A stretch of DNA of 64,000 nt, from assembly GCF_056746865.1 (NCBI RefSeq), contig NZ_CM163382.1. The stretch is one strand, 5' to 3'. This document shows positions 19,610 through 64,000 of the stretch, in pieces. The position numbers and the translations under genes were made by a program. The notes beneath the pieces are model-generated. The model was not told the origin of the DNA and did not search any database. It worked only from the letters and a program-made list of their open reading frames with translations. The stretch's first letter is position 1. The number at the start of each line of letters is the position of its first letter.

Positions 19610-19919
19610 CGGTTACCTTCTCCACTTTCACAGAACATAACGGCACCTCGCTGTCGGATGCTTTTGCTCTTTGGGATTATCAAAGCGGCAGATATTCTTT
19701 CATCTTAAATTTTACGTCTTTGTCCTGACTGATGTTTTTCCTGTTTGGCTGCGAAATAAATATAAAATTAATACATATATTTTAATGATGTATTTTTATA
19801 AATTATTTCCCACATGAATTTTAATAAATTTAATCTATTCCTTTATACGCAATACATTTACTTTCCTCTTTTGATGATCTTAAATGTCTTATTTTTCGTA
19901 ATGTGTATAACAAGGAATA

Positions 19920-22404: not shown

Positions 22405-23112
22405 TGCGCCTATAAGGCTCTCTTACCAGCCGCGCCCTAACAGGCGCACACGATCTGACATTTGCATCCAACTTCGTTACTTACGGCCCGTAAACGGGCT
22501 GCCCGGATAGGGAATCGATAACTGCTCTCCCATTTTATCCTCTTCAAGCTGGTGCTTTATGTAATCCTGTATCTTCGCCGTGTTCTTACCCACTGTATCG
22601 ACGTAGTACCCTCTGCACCAGAACTCCCTGTTCCTGTATTTGAATTTCAAATCACCAAACTGCTCGTAAAGCATCAGACTGCTTTTCCCTTTCAGATATC
22701 CCATAAACCCGGATACGCTCATTTTAGGCGGGATCTCCACAAGCATATGGATATGATCTGCACAGCATTCAGCTTCCAGAATCCGTACGCTTTTCCACTC
22801 ACACAGCTTTCTCAAAATACTGCCTATTGCTCTACGCTTCTCTCTGTAGAACACCTGTCTTCGGTATTTTGGCGCAAAAACTATGTGATATTTACAGTTC
22901 CATCGGGTGTGCGCTAAGCTCTTTTCGTTCCCCATTGGGACCCCCTTTTGATTTCTTGTTTGACACTTGCAGTTGCCAGACCGCAAGGTGTTTTAACAAA
23001 TCAAAAGGGGTTTTAATAACTGGCTCAAAGCTGAAAGCTTTCCGGAACCCCCAGCCTAGCTGGGGGTTTTCTGTGCACAAAAAACCCTCTGTAGTAACAG
23101 AGGGTTTTGTTC
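22405..23112 (-). mobile_element. IS200-like element (IS200/IS605 family); boundaries approximate
   Basis: About 708 bp containing tnpA with an RBS-sequestering stem (22942-23013) and terminal hairpins near 23040-23108; it is unclear whether the outermost hairpin belongs to the IS or to the host. Confidence 0.55.
22477..22935 (-). CDS. tnpA: IS200/IS605-family transposase TnpA (HUH-type)
   Basis: 152 aa from MGNEKSLAHTRWNCKYHIVFAPKYRR with the HxH motif (DHIHMLVEIPP) and catalytic Tyr region; the ORF track begins at a longer upstream start. Confidence 0.85.
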   Translation of the reverse strand: MGNEKSLAHTRWNCKYHIVFAPKYRRQVFYREKRRAIGSILRKLCEWKSVRILEAECCADHIHMLVEIPPKMSVSGFMGYLKGKSSLMLYEQFGDLKFKYRNREFWCRGYYVDTVGKNTAKIQDYIKHQLEEDKMGEQLSIPYPGSPFTGRK

Positions 23113-23130: not shown

Positions 23131-23147
23131 AATCATTCCCACTCAAT
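23131..23147. repeat. attL candidate: 17-bp direct repeat AATCATTCCCACTCAAT
   Basis: Identical to 62451-62467, which overlaps the guaA stop codon. Confidence 0.6.
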
Positions 23148-25059: not shown

Positions 25060-25372
25060 TTATTTCACATAAACAACTCCATTAAATAAATGTTTATCAT
25101 ACACAATAAACCATTTATGGATAATTATTACTCGTGATTTTTATGATTATTCGCGCATTTTTCTATCATTTTTATCCAGTGTGCCGTAAAACCACGTCCT
25201 TAAGGGCGTGGATGATGTCAACTGATGATGTCAACTATTGGCTGGCTTTGACTGATATTGCAGGAGTTGTTGGATAAGATTTAAGTGACCGTCAAAGCGG
25301 TCACTTATGAGAAAAGGAAGTTAGACAAAGTGGCAAACAGGCTCATTGATGGCTACGTCAATGACCAAGGTT

Positions 25373-27775
25373 TCATTCAGACTCCAGCAACTCTATCCTG
25401 GCGAGAAGCGCTTCATATTTATCAAGTAATCGAGAGTAGTTCCTTCGTTGCATTGCAGCTTCCATTACCAACATTTCTTCATAACGAATGCCGTAACGGG
25501 AACCAGCTTCTATAGCAGGAGTGATTACCTCACCGGTTTCATCATCTATGACGGCAGGAGTGTCACCCCATTCATCATAACAGATGAAACCAAAGCGATG
25601 AGCATCAAGACCATGCCTTTCGAATGCCTCCACGTACCGTTGAGCAATGGCGCCGAAGTGCCAGCGGGCGCCATCAGCGCCTTTTTCTTTAATCCTATCC
25701 AGATACTTATACTGGACTAGCTGAACCTCTTCTGCGGCATCGAGAATGGCATCAGTCATTAGTAATGGGTCTGATTTGCAAATGGCATCTGACGTGATAG
25801 TGAACGCCGTTTGAGTGAATCCACCAGACCACGGAAACGAACTTGCCCCGCAAGGATAGGTATTTGCCGTGGCAGGACGTATTTGCTTCACAGCAAATAC
25901 GTGCGACGTCATTTCTGCTGTACCAGAACCCGTAACGCCGGGATCTCCACCAGAGACACGTAAAATCCCTGTAGGGACAGATGAGTCCGTCGATGAATAA
26001 AAGCGAATCTGCTGTGCTTCTGCAACACCAGGGTTACATAGCTTAATAGCTTTAGTTGTGAACGCATTAGTATCCGTATCAAATATCCAGTATCTGTTGT
26101 TTGAACCACCATCTATAATAACGTTCGCAAGAGATACACCAACTCGCTGTATATTAGAAATATTGTTAGCATTAGTACCAGCAGTTAACTGAATACCCCT
26201 TGTGCAATTATTTACACGCGAGTTACTAATAGTATTATTAGCAGCAAATCTAGTGCCAGCGGTATTTCCTGTCAGGAGAGTATGCGTAGTGTCCTTACTG
26301 AAGCCTGTCAATAACACCTCATTATTAGTGAACGTACCGTACTGAGCACATGATTTAAAACCGATATAAGGTGTGGTTAAATCCTCAGGAATACCATTCC
26401 ATACCATACAAAAGTTATCTGTAATTACACTATGGTTTCCTCCATTGTTAGACAAATCACCCAACTCTACAGCACTTATGGAAGTATTGAAGTGGTTATT
26501 TGTAACCTGGAACAGGTTACCAACATTGTTTTCAGAAACAACTCCGCGGCGACCAGCAATGATATGGTTACCGAAAACCACAACACCTTCGGTATCGTCA
26601 TGCGCGTACATGAAGGTGTCGAAGTTCTGATAAGAACCATTGACAATATTGATATTCTTTGTTGAGTACAGGTCGAATATTTTACCCATTCGATATGCTG
26701 GTACAGATGTTCCTCCACCAGTTACGTTAACGCCGTCAAATACACACTGACCAGCTCTGCTTAGCTTAAAGACAGTATCAAAAGAGGATTGAGTACCAGC
26801 ATCATTTGACACATCCAGGTCACGAACGATAAGTTGTCGGGCGTATTCGATTCCCCCTGTCCCTAAAAACGTAAGCGCAGTACCCTGAAGTTGCCCGGTA
26901 GCTTTTATCGTGAAATTACGTAAACCAACAGGTTTTCTTACTACAGTCGTACCCGAGTTATCAATGATAAGACCATATCCAGCAGCAAATTTTATTCCGC
27001 ATGTAGCCATGCTTACGCCAAAAACATCACTATAAAAATTAGTTACTGAGATGTCGCTTGAGCAGTTGTATATACGACGAAGCTTAATATCTAGACCAGT
27101 TTCCTTTGCTGCAGTAAAGGCATTGATCAGTGCCAAGGTATCATCAGCATCACCTCCAACAGCGCCAAAATCCTCAGGAGTGAGTGATTCCCTCATTTTA
27201 TCCTGGAACGTTCGGTATACTGCCCCATAACCATACTGAATAAACCAACCAAAACCACCAACAACCCCGGCGATTGCAGCATCGACATAATTACGCATTG
27301 AGCGATTATTTACAGCGTCCTGCTCAAGTGATGGATCTGCAAGGTTAGAAATTCTGTTTTGCTTTGCATCGTAATATTTTGCAAGCAAAGATGGTTTCAT
27401 CAATGCACGTCTGAACCACCCAAAACATTGCTGGATCAGCATCGTCAGGTAGTCAAAGGCATCTTCATGCACTTCGGGAAAAAACTTTCCCTGATTGCGA
27501 AGGTCTGTCTCCTGTACTACATCAAGCACACGATCTATCGTAATTCGCCATCCAGTAGCAAGCGGAGACGGAAGAACCACAGAACCGCCACTATAAGTGC
27601 CCGCCCCAGTTACCGTATAACCGGTATCCAGAACCAATTCTGTTACGTTCCCGTTCAGGTCAGACACCTGAACAACCAGGTCTGATTTTCTGAAAATTCG
27701 AAAAGTATACGGAAACGATGTCGTAACGCCGTTACCTGTGTATTCGTTGTGGTCAACTTCGGTTGAGACCGTCAT
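25373..27775 (-). CDS. tail fiber / tailspike with C-terminal intramolecular-chaperone (peptidase S74-like) domain
   Basis: 800 aa; central region rich in N/G/T/S repeats typical of beta-helix receptor-binding domains; C-terminal segment resembling the auto-cleaving chaperone of endosialidase-type fibers. Confidence 0.75.
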   Translation of the reverse strand: MTVSTEVDHNEYTGNGVTTSFPYTFRIFRKSDLVVQVSDLNGNVTELVLDTGYTVTGAGTYSGGSVVLPSPLATGWRITIDRVLDVVQETDLRNQGKFFPEVHEDAFDYLTMLIQQCFGWFRRALMKPSLLAKYYDAKQNRISNLADPSLEQDAVNNRSMRNYVDAAIAGVVGGFGWFIQYGYGAVYRTFQDKMRESLTPEDFGAVGGDADDTLALINAFTAAKETGLDIKLRRIYNCSSDISVTNFYSDVFGVSMATCGIKFAAGYGLIIDNSGTTVVRKPVGLRNFTIKATGQLQGTALTFLGTGGIEYARQLIVRDLDVSNDAGTQSSFDTVFKLSRAGQCVFDGVNVTGGGTSVPAYRMGKIFDLYSTKNINIVNGSYQNFDTFMYAHDDTEGVVVFGNHIIAGRRGVVSENNVGNLFQVTNNHFNTSISAVELGDLSNNGGNHSVITDNFCMVWNGIPEDLTTPYIGFKSCAQYGTFTNNEVLLTGFSKDTTHTLLTGNTAGTRFAANNTISNSRVNNCTRGIQLTAGTNANNISNIQRVGVSLANVIIDGGSNNRYWIFDTDTNAFTTKAIKLCNPGVAEAQQIRFYSSTDSSVPTGILRVSGGDPGVTGSGTAEMTSHVFAVKQIRPATANTYPCGASSFPWSGGFTQTAFTITSDAICKSDPLLMTDAILDAAEEVQLVQYKYLDRIKEKGADGARWHFGAIAQRYVEAFERHGLDAHRFGFICYDEWGDTPAVIDDETGEVITPAIEAGSRYGIRYEEMLVMEAAMQRRNYSRLLDKYEALLARIELLESE

Positions 27776-27879
27776 GTTAAATCTCCAGATAGTCGCAGCA
27801 CCCGTTGCGCCGCATATCTGGTTATTCTATTACCTGAAAAACCACATATGGATAGAAAGGCTGTAAATACGAATAGATA

Positions 27880-27894
27880 TTACCTTTCAGGTAA
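27880..27894. promoter_or_regulatory. operator-like inverted repeat TTACC-TTTCA-GGTAA upstream of the tail fiber gene
   Basis: Perfect 5-bp half-sites, 15-bp site identical to 44822-44836. Confidence 0.5.
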
Positions 27895-27956
27895 TTTGCA
27901 AAACGTGCTGGATAGCAAACAAATTATTTGCTACTGTATAAATATACAGTTATTGC

Positions 27957-44525: not shown

Positions 44526-44732
44526 TTACTGACCAAGCAGCGTTTTACCGCTGGTATTAGCGGTTGATGTGTCGCCCTGAGAACCGGTAAGCAGCGTAGA
44601 ACTACGACCAGCAGCAGCGCGACGGCGACGAGTTTCTTCGTCGCGGGCATCAACAACGGCGGCATCCTGCTCCTGTGGTGCTGCCTGAACTTCTGGTGTT
44701 GCAGGCACTGATGGTGAGCTACCCATGCACAT
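44526..44732 (-). CDS. small hydrophilic protein upstream of the portal gene (frame choice uncertain)
   Basis: 68 aa; an alternative overlapping frame (44513-44752) also exists. Confidence 0.25.
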   Translation of the reverse strand: MCMGSSPSVPATPEVQAAPQEQDAAVVDARDEETRRRRAAAGRSSTLLTGSQGDTSTANTSGKTLLGQ

Positions 44733-44821
44733 ATCAATGACTCCGTACGCAATTAAATTATTACCAATTTAACCACATATGATTTATTTATCGTAGGTAG
44801 TTGACATTTAACGCACAAATT

Positions 44822-44836
44822 ATTACCTTTCAGGTA
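44822..44836. promoter_or_regulatory. operator-like inverted repeat TTACC-TTTCA-GGTAA upstream of the portal/head gene block
   Basis: Identical to the site at 27880; preceded by the shared TTACC-N5-AACCACATATG module. Confidence 0.5.
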
Positions 44837-45159
44837 ACCAAAGAGTTCATTCCGGTTACTAACCTGACTGGCTTGTCGTTAAATTGAACAGGTGGAGTGA
44901 GCTTTTATTTTGAGCAGTACGGCGTATGGCACATGCGCCGATAGCGGTCTGGATACGTTTAAGGGGCACCCTCCCTTGCTCGGGCAAACGAACCAGGTAG
45001 CCGGAATGTGCAAGTCGAGCGGTTTTATTCCGCGCACGGGGATTCACCATCCCGGCGATTCGGTGTGACGCCTCGGAAGAGACGAGGGTACAACGATGAG
45101 AGCATTTATGGAGCCGCGACAAAGTGTGGCGCCTTAACAGGCTAAGTGCTCTCAGCGTT

Positions 45160-45236
45160 GTGGCATTAGCTCAGCTGGACAGAGCAACCGCCTTCTAAGC
45201 GGTTGGTCGCAGGTTCGAATCCTGCATGCCACGCCA
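45160..45236 (+). tRNA. tRNA-Arg, anticodon UCU (reads AGA), prophage-encoded
   Basis: Manual cloverleaf: acceptor GTGGCAT/ATGCCAC, D-stem GCTC/GAGC, anticodon stem ACCGC/GCGGT with loop CTTCTAA, T-arm GCAGG-TTCGAAT-CCTGC, discriminator G and CCA end. Confidence 0.85.
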
Positions 45237-47374: not shown

Positions 47375-47967
47375 TGATTACCATCCTGACGTTCTTTGAG
47401 TCGCTTCCTGGCTGCCGCTATGCGATCAGCAATTGTCACATTCACATTAACATCCAGTCGTTCTTTGAATGCGTTGACGTCGACGTGCTTACCAATCAGT
47501 TCGAGGTTCTTCACCTTGTCAGGCCATTTAATTTTTTTGAGGATTGTCTCTATCGAATCCTCGTTCATGTTCATGATGGTCGATGACAGATCAAAGCCGC
47601 TAAGCGTAGTGCGCCAGATTTTCGGCCACTCGCGGATTGGCTTAAGGCTCCCATCGTCGTTGAGGATATCAATCACGTCCATCTGGTCGATCTCCACCAG
47701 GCGCATGAGAACGTAATCAGCACTGACGCGCATTCGTTTGTTGCGCTCCTCCATCAACTCGGCAATCCGTTTCTGAATGCGTTCATCGCGCATCATGACA
47801 CTGGCTTTAACTGCCGCTGTATTTGGGGAGAATCCTGCATTAATCGCAGCCTGAGTCTGGTTTTCAGGCGTTTTGATGTATGACTGGCAATAAGCCTCCT
47901 GCATTGCTGTTAGTGGCTTAAATTGCGTTGATTTGCGTTTATAGGCTTTAGGTTCAGCAGGCATCAT
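47371..47967 (-). CDS. terminase small subunit
   Basis: About 198 aa from the ATG at 47967 (the ORF track extends to 48045 through a repeat-encoded TITTTVTITT segment); basic N-terminal DNA-binding region. Confidence 0.65.
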   Translation of the reverse strand: MMPAEPKAYKRKSTQFKPLTAMQEAYCQSYIKTPENQTQAAINAGFSPNTAAVKASVMMRDERIQKRIAELMEERNKRMRVSADYVLMRLVEIDQMDVIDILNDDGSLKPIREWPKIWRTTLSGFDLSSTIMNMNEDSIETILKKIKWPDKVKNLELIGKHVDVNAFKERLDVNVNVTIADRIAAARKRLKERQDGNQ

Positions 47968-48041
47968 AACCACCGTGGTAATAGTTACCGTTGTGGTAAT
48001 AGTAACATGCAAAATAAAGCCGCCATAGTTGGCGGCAGTAT

Positions 48042-48271: not shown

Positions 48272-48613
48272 TCACACTATTAATTTCGTTTCATGCCAGC
48301 CTTTAGTCACCCAGCATTGTGAGTCACCATTACACGGACATGAATTAACTGGAACTCTCTCGCCGCACTTACCGCAACGTTTTCTACTGATCGATTTTAT
48401 ACGCCCGCGCACGCGTGCATCATCCTGGCGGATCAGTAACGCTATATACTCACCAAATTCGTAAGGCGCACGCCCGGGGCGACGCGCGGCACAGTTACGC
48501 TCAAGCATTTCAATTTCCTGAGCATCAAGCACAATCTCCAGCTTACGTACACCGGATGCAGCTTGTCTGGCTCTCTGAGCGGCTTTGCGCTCTGCTGCTG
48601 ATTTAGCCATCAA
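48272..48613 (-). CDS. hypothetical protein with C-terminal Cys-rich zinc-ribbon-like motif
   Basis: 113 aa; basic N-terminus and CGKCGERVPVNSCPCNGDSQC. Confidence 0.45.
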   Translation of the reverse strand: MMAKSAAERKAAQRARQAASGVRKLEIVLDAQEIEMLERNCAARRPGRAPYEFGEYIALLIRQDDARVRGRIKSISRKRCGKCGERVPVNSCPCNGDSQCWVTKGWHETKLIV

Positions 48614-52057: not shown

Positions 52058-52072
52058 TTACCTCTGAGGTAA
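52058..52072. promoter_or_regulatory. operator-like inverted repeat TTACC-TCTGA-GGTAA
   Basis: Intergenic, between the P-like gene and the downstream early genes. Confidence 0.45.
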
Positions 52073-52119
52073 TTAAAAACCACATAAGACACGAAATCAA
52101 TAGAGTTTAGAATATTTTG

Positions 52120-52134
52120 TTACCCAACAGGTAA
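52120..52134. promoter_or_regulatory. operator-like inverted repeat TTACC-CAACA-GGTAA
   Basis: Second site in the same intergenic region. Confidence 0.45.
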
Positions 52135-53943: not shown

Positions 53944-54021
53944 TTTTTCCGCCCCTTTTTGTTATTGATATTGGCTATTTTGCACAATTGGAAAATTTGA
54001 TCAACCAGATTTGGTTTTTTA

Positions 54022-54036
54022 TTACCTTTGAGGTAC
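54022..54036. promoter_or_regulatory. operator-like repeat TTACC-TTTGA-GGTAC (one mismatch)
   Basis: Downstream of the cro-like gene. Confidence 0.35.
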
Positions 54037-54091: not shown

Positions 54092-54322
54092 TCATGAGTA
54101 GAAGAAGTATGCCAGTTCTGCTTTTGAGCGCAGCCATTGTCTTGTTTTACAGGCTTTAAAAAGCCCATTCATCAATACCTTACCTGGCATTTTGCGCTTG
54201 CCTGTTAAGTGAGTCTGGATATAGTGACTCGTCGTTCCGGCTTCCTGTGCGAAGGCTTCACGCTCATCCGGAGTAAGTGCAAGCCAGTGCTTTTTGAAAT
54301 CGAAATGTCCGTTATCGCTCAT
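54092..54322 (-). CDS. Cro-like HTH regulator
   Basis: 76 aa, divergent from the cI-like gene, with operator-like repeats in the shared intergenic region. Confidence 0.55.
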   Translation of the reverse strand: MSDNGHFDFKKHWLALTPDEREAFAQEAGTTSHYIQTHLTGKRKMPGKVLMNGLFKACKTRQWLRSKAELAYFFYS

Positions 54323-54357: not shown

Positions 54358-54372
54358 TTCACCCATAAGGTA
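54358..54372. promoter_or_regulatory. operator-like repeat TCACC-CATAA-GGTAA in the cI/cro intergenic region
   Basis: One of three adjacent sites between the divergent regulators. Confidence 0.5.
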
Positions 54373-54388
54373 ACAAAAATCAAGGATG

Positions 54389-54403
54389 GTTACCTATGAG
54401 GTG
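54389..54403. promoter_or_regulatory. operator-like repeat TTACC-TATGA-GGTGC in the cI/cro intergenic region
   Basis: Abuts the next site. Confidence 0.45.
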
Positions 54404-54405
54404 CA

Positions 54406-54420
54406 TTTACCTGTTGGGTA
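54406..54420. promoter_or_regulatory. operator-like inverted repeat TTACC-TGTTG-GGTAA in the cI/cro intergenic region
   Basis: Perfect half-sites. Confidence 0.5.
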
Positions 54421-54476
54421 ATATTGCTTTAAATTGAATCATCTACTGATTCATATATGAGGCGATTTTCCAGAAA

Positions 54477-55061
54477 ATGAAAAGTATCCAGGACGTCCGC
54501 AGGCAAAATCTCAACGACTTGATCGACCGTGAATTCAATGGTGTTCAGACGCGGATGGCAGAAAAACTTGGAACTCAGGCAAATCTGGTAAACCGCTGGG
54601 CTCTTGGCAAGAAGGTTATCGGCGACCAGGTTGCGCGAAAAATTGAAGCTGCCGCCAATAAACCCCGTAACTGGCTTGATATCGATCGCTCGCTTTCTCA
54701 GGAAGGTTTTCAGCCTGTCGGCCCAAGCGACATTGGTCAGCTGGCGGCTCACAACCTGGAACGCTGGATGAGCGAAAGCCGCGACCTTTCAACACAGGGA
54801 AAACTTCACCGCGCATCCGGCGTCGCCCAGGTGACAATCAGCCGCCTGTTAAACAATGAGGTCAGCGTTTCCATTTCCACCCTGGAGAATGTTGCATCCG
54901 CATTCGGGCGTCACGGATATGAACTACTGATTCACCCGCACGACCCTGCGACTATCAACTATGACCGCTCACGCTACGCATTGTTACCCGAAACCGAGAA
55001 AGCAAAGATCGAAAGTTACATTGAATTTGTCATCAACCAGAACGAAAAAAGCAAACAATAA
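54477..55061 (+). CDS. CI-like repressor with two XRE-type HTH domains
   Basis: 194 aa; two HTH-like segments (QTRMAEKLGTQANLVNRWALGKK and RASGVAQVTISRLLNNE); divergent from the cro-like gene. Confidence 0.6.
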   Translation: MKSIQDVRRQNLNDLIDREFNGVQTRMAEKLGTQANLVNRWALGKKVIGDQVARKIEAAANKPRNWLDIDRSLSQEGFQPVGPSDIGQLAAHNLERWMSESRDLSTQGKLHRASGVAQVTISRLLNNEVSVSISTLENVASAFGRHGYELLIHPHDPATINYDRSRYALLPETEKAKIESYIEFVINQNEKSKQ

Positions 55062-55108: not shown

Positions 55109-55123
55109 GCCTATACTATTACC
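55109..55123. promoter_or_regulatory. operator-like inverted repeat TTACC-TAATG-GGTAA
   Basis: Between the cI-like gene and the recombination operon. Confidence 0.45.
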
Positions 55124-55180
55124 TAATGGGTAATTTTTTTAACTCATATCTATTGACATCAAACCAAATACGCATAATTA

Positions 55181-55195
55181 TTACCTAAACGGTAA
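55181..55195. promoter_or_regulatory. operator-like inverted repeat TTACC-TAAAC-GGTAA overlapping a promoter-like region
   Basis: TTGACA at 55153-55158 lies 22 bp upstream; the site precedes the 55373 operon. Confidence 0.45.
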
Positions 55196-58817: not shown

Positions 58818-59117
58818 GTGAGAAAGTTAAGCCGACTTGAAAAATATCACATGAATAAGGTTTCAATGCGCAGTCCGTCAAAGATTGTCGCCGTTACTCC
58901 TGCGGCGATAGAGATCGAAAAACGCGCGATTGAAAGAGAGAAAAAAGGGCAGTTCCGCATTGCCGCTCACCTTTGGCTTCAGTGTATGGATGTTGCTTCT
59001 GGTGATGTTGAGCGTGCAAGGATCGCGGTTCGCAGGGACCAATGTATCACAAAAGGTAACGGCCTTCGCCGTGGAGACTATAGCGGTATAGGATGTTGCG
59101 GGGTGGTTTATGACTAA
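58818..59117 (+). CDS. hypothetical protein, translationally coupled to the methyltransferase
   Basis: 99 aa; its stop overlaps the methyltransferase start. Confidence 0.4.
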   Translation: MRKLSRLEKYHMNKVSMRSPSKIVAVTPAAIEIEKRAIEREKKGQFRIAAHLWLQCMDVASGDVERARIAVRRDQCITKGNGLRRGDYSGIGCCGVVYD

Positions 59118-60005: not shown

Positions 60006-60329
60006 AATCACGCCTGACGAATCGCGATTATCTCGCTATTGGTATTGCAGAGATTGCTGGACTCAATGGCGCATGATTTGACAATGCCGCCAGAGCTATC
60101 GCATACTGACCGCACTAGAAAACAAACAGCGGTCATCCGCACCCGATAGCTTTGCGGCTTTTTTATGCCTGCAATCTGGCATAGTCACATCCGTACAAAG
60201 GTCGGGTGGAGAGGCGTAATACAACACCCGAAAGGGGAATATGCCCGGAGCTACTGTTTGTGCTCTAGTTGACACCCGATCACCAGCTACTAACTGGTTT
60301 TCGTAACTAAAAACAAACAGGAGGTCATC

Positions 60330-62450: not shown

Positions 62451-62467
62451 TTAATCATTCCCACTCA
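62451..62467. repeat. attR candidate: 17-bp direct repeat AATCATTCCCACTCAAT overlapping the guaA stop codon
   Basis: Identical to 23131-23147; encodes the last guaA codons (..IEWE-stop) on the minus strand. Confidence 0.6.
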
Positions 62468-64000
62468 ATAGTCGCTGGTGGCTTGCCGCTGATGTCATAC
62501 ACCACGCGGGAAATACCGTTCACTTCATTGATAATGCGGTTGGAAACGCGACCGAGGAAGTCATACGGCAGGTGCGCCCAGTGTGCGGTCATAAAGTCGA
62601 TGGTTTCGACAGCACGCAGAGAAACAACCCAGTCATACTTACGACCATCGCCCATTACACCAACGGAACGTACCGGCAGGAAGACGGTGAACGCCTGGCT
62701 GACTTTGTCGTACAGGTCCGCTTTACGCAGTTCTTCAATAAAGATGGCGTCAGCACGGCGCAGCAGGTCGCAGTACTCTTTCTTCACTTCGCCCAGTACA
62801 CGAACGCCGAGGCCTGGTCCCGGGAACGGGTGACGGTACAGCATGTCGTACGGCAGGCCCAGCTCCAGACCAATCTTACGCACTTCGTCTTTGAACAGCT
62901 CTTTCAGCGGTTCAACCAGCCCCATCTTCATCTCTTTCGGCAGGCCGCCCACGTTGTGGTGAGATTTGATGACGTGTGCTTTACCGGTTGCAGATGCGGC
63001 AGATTCAATAACGTCAGGGTAGATAGTGCCCTGCGCCAGCCACTTCACGTCTTCCAGTTTCAGTGCTTCTTCATCGAATACTTCAACGAAAACGCGCCCG
63101 ATGATTTTACGTTTTGCTTCCGGATCGTTTTCGCCGGCCAACGCTGACAGGAAGCGAGCTTCTGCCGGAACGTGAACAATGTTCAGACCAAAGTGATCGC
63201 CAAACATATCCAGAACCTGCTCTGCTTCGTTGAGACGCAGCAGGCCGTTGTCGACGAATACGCAAGTCAGGTTTTTACCGATAGCGCGGTGCAGCAGCAT
63301 TGCGGTTACGGAGGAATCCACACCACCAGAGAGGCCGAGGATGACTTTATCGTCGCCTACCTGCTCGCGGATGCGAGCTACGGCGTCGTCGATAATTTTC
63401 GCTGGCGTCCACAGGGCTTCACACTGGCAGATATCACGCACAAAACGCTCCAGCATGCGCATACCCTGGCGGGTGTGAGTCACTTCCGGGTGGAACTGTA
63501 CGCCATAGAAGCGTTTTTCTTCGTTAGCCATAATGGCAAACGGGCAGCTTTCGGTGCTGGCTACGGTGACGAAGTCGGACGGGATAGCGGTAACTTTATC
63601 GCCGTGGCTCATCCAGACATCGAGCAGCGGTTTACCGTCTGCGGTCAGCGCATCTTCGATACCGCGAACCAGTGCGCTGTCGTTTACGACTTCAACCTGC
63701 GCGTAGCCAAATTCACGTTCGTTAGAGGCTTCAACGTGACCGCCCAACTGCATTGCCATGGTCTGCATGCCATAGCAAACGCCGAATACCGGTACGCCTG
63801 CTTCAAAGACATACTGCGGCGCGCGCGGGCTGTTTTCTTCGGTGGTGCTTTCCGGGCCGCCGGAAAGAATAATGCCGCTTGGGTTGAAGTCACGAATTTG
63901 TGCTTCTGTCACATCCCACGCCCACAGTTCGCAGTAAACACCCAGTTCACGCACGCGGCGCGCAACCAGTTGAGTGTACTGAGAACCGAAGTCCAGAATG
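62455..64000 (-). CDS. guaA: GMP synthase (glutamine-hydrolysing), 3' portion; N-terminus lies beyond the window
   Basis: C-terminal ATP-pyrophosphatase domain (SGGVDSSV P-loop) and part of the glutamine amidotransferase domain; reading frame runs off the right window edge. Confidence 0.9.

Follow-up and report, generated by a model that had tools for sequence, protein, structure and literature searches.

Results

Two late loci of a Uetakevirus prophage share a module

The DNA examined here, a window of 64,000 nucleotides from contig NZ_CM163382.1 (NCBI RefSeq assembly GCF_056746865.1), contains between positions 23131 and 62469 a podovirus prophage of the phiV10/epsilon15 type (genus Uetakevirus) whose late genes lie on the minus strand. 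Its ends are two copies of the att core ATTGAGTGGGAATGATT, present as the reverse complement, and it is inserted at the 3' end of guaA; the core sequence was taken from the description of phage ZX5 (PMC9782041), for which the same insertion site is reported. Two intergenic regions of this prophage, over which phiV10 and its relatives are 94-99% identical to the window, are the subject of this work. The first (locus 1) separates the minus-strand tail fibre gene from a plus-strand homologue of the antirepressor gene ant, and the second (locus 2) separates the minus-strand gp3-like gene, the first of the portal/protease/capsid block, from a plus-strand insert that contains a tRNA-Arg gene and one small gene. 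Both hold the same module on the late strand, formed by a 15-bp palindrome, a 14-bp palindrome and a short conserved block in which the -10 of a promoter probably lies (positions of all features are given in Table 1).

A first-pass annotation had described this arrangement as an operator, a spacer and then CATATGTGGTT-N5-GGTAA, upstream of minus-strand genes at both loci, and in this it was right. The operator core is the 15-bp palindrome TTACC-N5-GGTAA (hereafter the 15-mer), and the 16-mer ATTACCTTTCAGGTAA is found without mismatch at 27879-27894 and 44822-44837 of the plus strand; AACCACATATG, the plus-strand form of CATATGTGGTT, is likewise exact at 27840-27850 and 44771-44781. The spacer from the 15-bp core to CATATGTGGTT measures 29 nt at locus 1 and 41 nt at locus 2, and GGTAA comes 5 nt after TGGTT at both (TTACC of the plus strand at 27830-27834 and 44761-44765). 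When up to three mismatches are allowed, ATTACCTTTCAGGTAA has 13 matches in the window against 0.37 expected from shuffles; with up to one mismatch there are 16 copies of TTACC-N5-GGTAA (1.08 expected) and 5 matches to AACCACATATG (0.96 expected from shuffles).

Alignment of the orthologous regions revealed that CATATGTGGTT belongs, as its right part, to a 14-bp palindrome of consensus A(A/T)CCATAT(A/G)TGGTT (hereafter the 14-mer), and it therefore resembles a protein-binding site rather than a core promoter hexamer; the earlier view of it as a promoter element is upheld as regards its conservation but not its nature. ACC/GGT cores are common to the 14-mer and the 15-mer, those of the 14-mer being one base further apart. 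When the window was scanned with a matrix derived solely from Salmonella, Enterobacter and Klebsiella phages, four matches were obtained (0.96 in shuffles). All are intergenic and upstream of lytic units, and three of them are separated from a 15-mer by a distance that only 0.4% of prophage positions share. The same scan detected no strong copy in the ~24 kb of host DNA of the window. Besides those at locus 1 and locus 2, the copies in the window stand upstream of the lysis cassette and after cro, and weaker ones are found in the promoter spacers of PL and of the operon of p45, a DUF1064 gene.

Both elements and their spacing are kept at orthologous places in related phages, ten diverged genomes having been compared at the head locus (locus 2) and seven at the tail fibre locus (locus 1). 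At the former, the 15-mer, GTCAA, the core TATGTG.TT and GGTAAT.ATTT are conserved while the remainder drifts; at the latter, the 15-mer, CATAT..GGTT and GGTAATA(G/C)AAT are conserved while the sequence between them drifts. Orthologous elements are conserved across six genera. The argument made in the first-pass annotation, that elements kept on either side of a differing spacer speak against chance, is thus borne out by the shuffle statistics and by the drift between the conserved elements in the alignments.

The two palindromes are helically phased

In seven phage genomes the centres of the two palindromes are separated by a distance that does not vary at a given locus, namely 52.5 bp at the head locus, 40.5 bp at the tail fibre locus and 43.5 bp upstream of the lysis cassette; at PL, p45 and after cro the distances are 19.5 and 42.5 bp. 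Where two 15-mers form a pair, at PL and at p45, 62 bp separate them, in the latter case in six of the seven phage genomes (the pair of PAT1 is listed without a measurement). All these values are near to whole helical turns (about 2, 4, 5 and 6). Strong 14-mers belong to units that have one 15-mer, and units with two usually have weak ones. The three late units have the strongest 14-mers; in early promoters the element is weaker or optional. In two lineages a 15-mer-type site takes the position of the 14-mer: at PL of an Enterobacter asburiae prophage (L092) the promoter spacer holds the 15-mer-type site TAACCATTTTGGTAA in place of the 14-mer, and at the p45 promoter of a metagenome locus (L095) two adjacent 15-mers occupy the spacer position usually held by the 14-mer.

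Relative to the probable -10, the centre of the 14-mer lies at about -19.5 (PL and p45), -26.5 (lysis), -29.5 (tail fibre) and -40.5 (after cro). All these positions are within the footprint of RNA polymerase but do not fit a single activator geometry, which points to a negative role of the 14-mer.

The 15-mer is the probable operator of the prophage repressor Rep

Judging from its positions and from the annotation of epsilon15, the 15-mer is probably the operator of the prophage repressor Rep. Three copies occupy the classic position of repressor operators between the cro-like gene and rep (OR); other copies flank the -35 of PL (55119 and 55181) and the promoter of the DUF1064 gene (52058 and 52120), and further ones are found after cro (54022), where the small terminase gene begins (47967 and 47985) and next to int (62305). 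In the RefSeq record of epsilon15 (NC_004775) the same motif is marked 'protein_bind repressor' at 2931-2947, upstream of gp3, and at 19895-19911, between gp19 (ant) and gp20 (tail fibre), which are the orthologues of the sites at locus 2 and locus 1, respectively. The presence of a repressor operator at both loci is therefore already known as a prediction in that public record, and the perfect operator of the first-pass annotation is a real palindrome which has to be seen as one of about a dozen copies of this probable Rep operator. The half-sites at locus 1 are invariant in seven genomes save for one base in phiV10 (TCACC).

Rep, a protein with two helix-turn-helix (HTH) domains, has been reported to bind palindromic sites as a tetramer (PMC9638917). 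Among relatives its identity falls to 41-43% and its recognition helix varies (NLVNRW, NLVSRW, NLISRW, TLVNRW), and the operator motif is identical (loci L090-L096 included). TTACC-N5-GGTAA is unchanged in all 13 diverged genomes, from hosts belonging to E. coli, Salmonella, Enterobacter, Klebsiella, Cronobacter, Serratia and Raoultella and from a metagenome. Relatives with a different operator were sought in phage records, in viral contigs (which gave near-identical loci only) and in the protein database together with seven encoding contigs (Cronobacter, Serratia, Enterobacter, Raoultella, E. coli and metagenome); every one examined uses TTACC-N5-GGTAA. The Rep family appears to have a single immunity type.

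On the other side of the locus-1 operator, a near-perfect LexA box, read from the sequence, lies directly upstream of the ant homologue. Box and gene fit the LexA-controlled antirepressor switch described for SPC32H. As Kim and Ryu are said to have found in 2013, the ant promoter overlaps the LexA box, about 40 bp from the locus-1 operator.

A start at TTG 48045 would place the two operators at 47967-47999, which are 18 bp apart, inside the small-terminase open reading frame (ORF). The gene starts with an ATG beyond the operator pair in epsilon15, SPC32H and Tyrion; therefore the true start is probably downstream here as well, and the pair would mark another Rep-controlled unit.

Promoter elements at the two loci

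The promoter-like character that had been proposed for both loci does not extend to a canonical sigma-70 promoter (-35 and -10 hexamers at 16-18 bp spacing), which a consensus scan did not score at either of them; there is no -35 hexamer at locus 1 or locus 2, and only a -10-like hexamer is conserved. GGTAA, earlier placed near the first gene, is indeed present at both loci, where it abuts or overlaps a conserved block (GGTAATAGAAT at locus 1 and GGTAATAATTT at locus 2) that probably holds the -10. The only change in the block of locus 1 turns TAGAAT into TACAAT in PAT1, at the tolerant third position of a -10 hexamer, and therefore fits a -10 hexamer located 10 nt after the palindrome. The block of locus 2 is a candidate region in which no single hexamer was picked.

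On the plus strand of locus 2, TTGACA stands 17 bp before a TACCTT that falls inside the operator; GTCAA is invariant on the late strand in the ten genomes, and the inner bases of this operator are more conserved than those of other operators. These features suggest a divergent Rep-controlled promoter directed toward tRNA-Arg and the small gene, and the head-locus operator may also, or mainly, serve this divergent promoter.

An Rfam scan gave no match at locus 1 or locus 2. A GC-rich hairpin in the leader of the tail fibre gene (minus strand, ~27790-27815) recurs in six of seven genomes, with bases changed on both its sides, and may be a stabilising or processing structure.

Late blocks need promoters of their own

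In phiV10 and epsilon15, terminators are predicted behind the large terminase gene and behind the gene that closes the long structural operon (p21; gp18 in epsilon15), and the terminase and tail fibre genes are followed by genes on the other strand. With such terminators and opposite-strand genes in front of them, the head block and the tail fibre gene are beyond simple read-through, and every late block must have a promoter to itself. A Q- or N-like antiterminator is neither annotated in phiV10 or epsilon15 nor found among the ~15 ORFs of the window that were scanned against PHROGs. Late control of the lambda type does not agree with this result, nor with a late region broken by terminators and opposite-strand genes. 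In this prophage and in the other Uetakevirus genomes compared, the module most likely stands before lytic transcription units that are out of reach of read-through.

Further copies of the module

The idea of a functional duplicated late promoter gains support from the conservation of the module and from the need of each block for its own promoter, but the module is not a simple duplication: it exists in at least four copies and is the layout of several lytic units. The copies at 52058-52134, 25096-25122, 54003-54036 and 55119-55195 had been missed by the first-pass annotation. Both hexamers are present in the p45 promoter and in PL, where the spacer contains the 14-mer and a 15-mer covers the start. 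At p45 this 14-mer is weak (52078-52091), and the hexamers, read from the sequence, are conserved in most of 12 genomes compared; at PL the 14-mer is degenerate in the window and perfect in Tyrion. After cro, in front of the replication operon, the 14-mer overlaps the -35 TTGATC. The arrangement GGTAA-N5-14mer-GATC-N17-18-AAAAT(T/A) is kept there in 12 of 13 genomes, the Serratia one being without a -10-like hexamer, and of the upstream 15-mer many genomes retain no more than the right half.

Upstream of the lysis cassette, phiV10 and Tyrion carry the perfect 14-mer AACCATATATGGTT plus TATAAT or TATGAT. We rejected an extended -10 at this promoter, as the TG is out of register. An O-antigen-modifying gene between the tail fibre and lysis genes, present in phiV10, epsilon15, SPC32H and Tyrion, is absent in the window (25060-25372).

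Other candidate regulators and flanking features

Three other genes of the prophage encode candidate regulators: a protein with ribbon-helix-helix (RHH) and zinc elements just upstream of terS, a PerC-like protein and the Cro-like protein, which match phrog_536, phrog_868 and phrog_35. They are unrelated by name to Lpa, the late activator of P1, no search for Lpa homologues having been made. All genomes examined have kept the terS-proximal gene, which closes the middle operon immediately ahead of terS, and its product matched no family in Pfam, NCBIfam or PDB. Homologues of Rep and of the Cro-like protein are confined to this phage group. Rfam matches to two small RNAs (sRNAs) lie just beyond the left prophage end (STnc490) and within the early-left region of the prophage (sRNA-Xcc1).

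Table 1. Coordinates, in the window, of the prophage features considered in this work.
Feature	Position	Strand	Remarks
STnc490 sRNA	22945-23068	-	Rfam match
att core copies	23131-23147, 62453-62469		prophage ends
Lysis-cassette promoter, fourth copy of the module	25096-25122	-	14-mer 25109-25122 (late strand ATCCATAAATGGTT), 7 nt, -10 TATGAT 25096-25101
Tail fibre gene	25373-27775	-	
GGTAATAGAAT block, tail-fibre promoter	27824-27834	-	likely -10 TAGAAT (27824-27829), GGTAA half-site before it; invariant in 7 genomes save PAT1
14-mer, locus 1	27840-27853		late strand ATCCATATGTGGTT; score 19.1 with the matrix from non-E. coli phages; CATAT..GGTT invariant (7 genomes)
Rep operator, locus 1	27880-27894		TTACCTTTCAGGTAA, between tail fibre gene and ant; exact palindrome
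LexA box	27932-27951		TACTGTATAAATATACAGTT
ant homologue (small antirepressor)	27957/27973-28229	+	phrog_450 and anti-repressor PHROG; syntenic with SPC32H ant
gp3-like gene	44526-44732	-	
GGTAATAATTT block, candidate -10 region of head-operon promoter	44755-44765	-	GGTAAT.ATTT invariant in 10 genomes
14-mer, locus 2	44771-44784		late strand AATCATATGTGGTT; score 18.6 with the same matrix; TATGTG.TT invariant across 10 genomes
TTGACA, likely -35 of a putative divergent promoter	44801-44806	+	-10 TACCTT would fall inside the operator; toward tRNA-Arg
Rep operator, locus 2	44823-44837		upstream of gp3-like/portal/capsid block; exact palindrome; invariant in 10 genomes
tRNA-Arg	45160-45233	+	
terS-proximal regulator (RHH plus zinc)	48272-48613		
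p45 (DUF1064)-operon promoter, third copy of the module	52058-52134	-	operators 52120-52134 and 52058-52072 (over start); -35 TTGATT 52095-52100; -10 TTTAAT 52072-52077
After-cro promoter, replication operon	53976-54036	-	operator (1 mismatch) 54022-54036, N5, 14-mer 54003-54016, -35 TTGATC 53999-54004, 17 nt, -10 AAAATA 53976-53981
Cro-like gene	54092-54322		
OR, three operators	54359-54373, 54390-54404, 54407-54421		between cro-like gene and rep
rep, prophage repressor	54477-55061	+	two HTH domains, PHROG HTH matches in both halves; 43% identical to SPC32H Rep; matches PDB 5D50 and 5D4Z
OL/PL	55119-55195	+	operators 55119-55133 and 55181-55195 flank -35 TTGACA 55153-55158; degenerate 14-mer 55162-55175 in spacer
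PerC-like gene	58818-59117		
sRNA-Xcc1	60200-60289	+	Rfam match

Discussion

We consider it probable (about 0.6) that both loci are late promoter modules guarded by Rep. Along the direction of late transcription the module would consist of the 15-mer, four or five helical turns of free sequence, the 14-mer, a -10 within the GGTAAT-A(G)AAT block, a short leader and the first gene, with the 14-mer occupying the place of the -35 hexamer and spacer. In the lysogen Rep would keep the late promoters off. Its tetramer would supply two DNA-binding pairs, one of which would sit on the 15-mer and the other on the in-phase 14-mer, a second and weaker operator class, and the core promoter would be covered. 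Upon SOS induction, LexA would release ant, which is next to locus 1, Ant would remove Rep, and the lytic units would fire. The proposal that Rep itself binds the 14-mer as a second operator class, bridging from the 15-mer, is more tentative and in our judgement falls a little short of even odds. A repressing site, and Rep in particular, would agree with the variable place of the 14-mer inside the polymerase footprint, with a spacing from 15-mers that follows the turn counts seen between paired 15-mers, with the strong 14-mers of units that have one 15-mer, with the 15-mer-type sites that stand in for it in two lineages, and with the common ACC/GGT cores.

Several observations weigh against this reading. 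The half-sites of the two palindromes differ, those of the 15-mer being always ACC and those of the 14-mer often TCC, the latter around a conserved ATATAT centre and with the additional base between the cores; these differences would fit another protein at least as well as Rep. The GGTAA beside the 14-mer is in the wrong orientation for the near half of a standard operator. In Tyrion, strong 14-mers are found even with two 15-mers. Upstream of the lysis cassette, five relatives have a 15-mer at 43.5 bp which the window has lost, a GTAAT-N4 remnant adjoining the 14-mer there instead. At locus 1 and locus 2 the upstream 15-mer lies between divergent genes and could serve those. A promoter without a -35 is usually a mark of dependence on an activator. 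Finally, the late genes of well-studied phages are said to be always positively controlled (PMC10695390).

These last points lead to positive control as an alternative, in which the 14-mer would be the site of a phage-encoded late activator that replaces the missing -35, as Lpa does at P1, and that shuts early promoters with the site in their spacer, the Rep operator only adding tightness or serving the divergent gene. P1 has 11 dispersed late promoters with a conserved inverted repeat bound by Lpa, in addition to dispersed control by C1 (PMC10695390), and the present late promoters, with a -10 but no -35 hexamer, would suit such a protein, as would the greater strength of the 14-mer at the three late units than at the early ones. 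The three regulators named above are the candidates, and the one before terS is conserved in every genome examined. The gap between the 14-mer and the -10 is nonetheless different from one promoter to another (7 nt at lysis, 10 nt at the tail fibre gene, 0 at PL and p45), the 14-mer overlaps the -35 after cro, and 14-mers and 15-mers replace each other in promoter spacers. Further, the regulator next to terS has diverged to 33% identity in the Serratia prophage, where a beta-strand is changed as well but the after-cro 14-mer is not, and homologues of this regulator occur in Q-dependent lambdoid phages that lack the motif, which is weak evidence since the Chlobot copy may be broken. Because of this divergence under an unchanged motif, and of these homologues, the terS-proximal regulator is the least likely candidate for binding the 14-mer. 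We regard positive control as rather unlikely, but as the main rival of the Rep model.

Rather unlikely, too, is that the 15-mers mainly control divergent plus-strand promoters (ant at locus 1, tRNA-Arg and its neighbouring moron at locus 2), the resemblance between the loci being that of two separate functions placed side by side. In its favour are the invariant TTGAC(A) at locus 2 and the unusually conserved inner bases of the operator that holds TACCTT, a conserved TTGCA(A/T) directly after the locus-1 operator on the ant strand, and the fact that, in most genomes, an opposite-strand gene adjoins each of the three late units that have only one upstream 15-mer. But operator and 14-mer stay the same distance apart, to half a base pair, in all genomes although what lies between them drifts, which argues for a functional link to the late side, and the p45 unit has the same layout without a divergent gene. 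The reported position of the ant promoter over the LexA box, some 40 bp from the locus-1 operator, also speaks against this reading.

Recognition of the 14-mer by a host protein, a nucleoid-associated one or a global regulator exploited by phage promoters, is improbable. The centre of the 14-mer is AT-rich and the annotators of epsilon15 predicted IHF sites in the same intergenic regions, but those sites do not fall on the 14-mer, the E. coli phages have not conserved them, and strong 14-mers are lacking in the host DNA scanned. Comparison by eye with the sites of IHF, Fis, CRP, FNR, DnaA, LexA and MqsA gave no convincing match, a DnaA box of 8/9 occurring at one locus only. Finally, a chance likeness or a recent gene conversion without function, for which it could be said that the 16-mer is identical at both loci only in E. 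coli phages (elsewhere the inner bases differ between loci), is effectively refuted by the conservation at orthologous positions and by the shuffle statistics, and is hardly credible.

Rep-guarded late promoters would have parallels in several known systems. epsilon15 and SPC32H share with the window the same 15-bp palindrome at the same places, a homologous Rep whose structure is solved (PDB 5D50) and a homologous ant with its LexA box; they differ in that neither the 14-mer nor its copies nor the phasing has any annotated feature among the regulatory features of the epsilon15, phiV10 and SPC32H records. The ZX5 and phiV10 papers do not mention the 15-mer or 14-mer elements. Our additions are the 14-bp palindrome, present some six times in each genome, the helical phasing that ties it to the operator, and the picture in which a single operator motif guards most lytic units.

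Phage P1 resembles this prophage in its many separate transcription units and in the operators of its master repressor, which are scattered outside the immunity region (PMC10695390). Its late promoters consist of a -10 and a conserved inverted repeat just upstream, without a -35 (PMC10695390), which is what we found at the gp3, tail fibre and lysis units. Unlike the arrangement at Lpa-dependent promoters, the distance from repeat to -10 is variable here, since besides the lysis and tail fibre gaps given above there are promoters at which the repeat abuts the -10 or overlaps the -35. A further difference from P1 is that the palindrome here is found also inside early promoters, helically phased with the repressor operator. 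The C1 operator of P1 is asymmetric, whereas the operator described here is palindromic.

With lambda OR and OL the prophage has in common three operators between repressor and cro, operators at PL, and, if Rep acts as proposed, repressor oligomers that bridge separate operators. The late genes of lambda, in contrast, depend on Q antitermination from one promoter and have no CI operators, whereas here there is no annotated antiterminator, terminators lie between the late blocks, and operators are found at each block. The stoperators bound by gp71 of mycobacteriophage L5 are, as here, repressor sites dispersed through lytic genes, far from the immunity region. They are asymmetric, have one orientation within transcription units and block elongation, whereas the sites of this prophage are palindromic, intergenic and at promoters. 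The C repressor of Rhizobium phage 16-3 binds palindromes with 4-bp and 6-bp spacers, and thus offers a precedent for two operator classes recognised by one repressor. The proteins are unrelated, the two classes described here differ also in flanking and central bases, and binding of Rep to the second class is putative.

The relatives phiV10, SPC32H and epsilon15 are used as reporter or typing phages, and prophages of this kind are frequent in E. coli, Salmonella, Klebsiella, Cronobacter and others. In the literature examined, late-gene control beyond the Rep/Ant/LexA switch is not described. The map obtained here provides one operator motif at most lytic units and a second palindrome on their promoters at a fixed helical phase. 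For engineering, the -10 blocks and operators mark places where reporters could be inserted while leaving control intact. That operators distributed across the entire genome cannot change in concert is a plausible reason for the apparently single, frozen immunity specificity of the family. The identity of the 14-mer binder would decide between negative control of late genes by the prophage repressor alone and positive control as in other phages. In the former case the Uetakeviruses would have no late activator or antiterminator, and constitutive late promoters lacking a -35 would be held off by a Rep tetramer bridging a 15-mer and a 14-mer 4-6 turns apart. We hold this strong form to be doubtful. 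If true, control of late genes by Rep alone would be an exception to the rule of positive late-gene control in phages, and would explain why operator specificity is unchanged across genera despite a Rep identity of ~40%.

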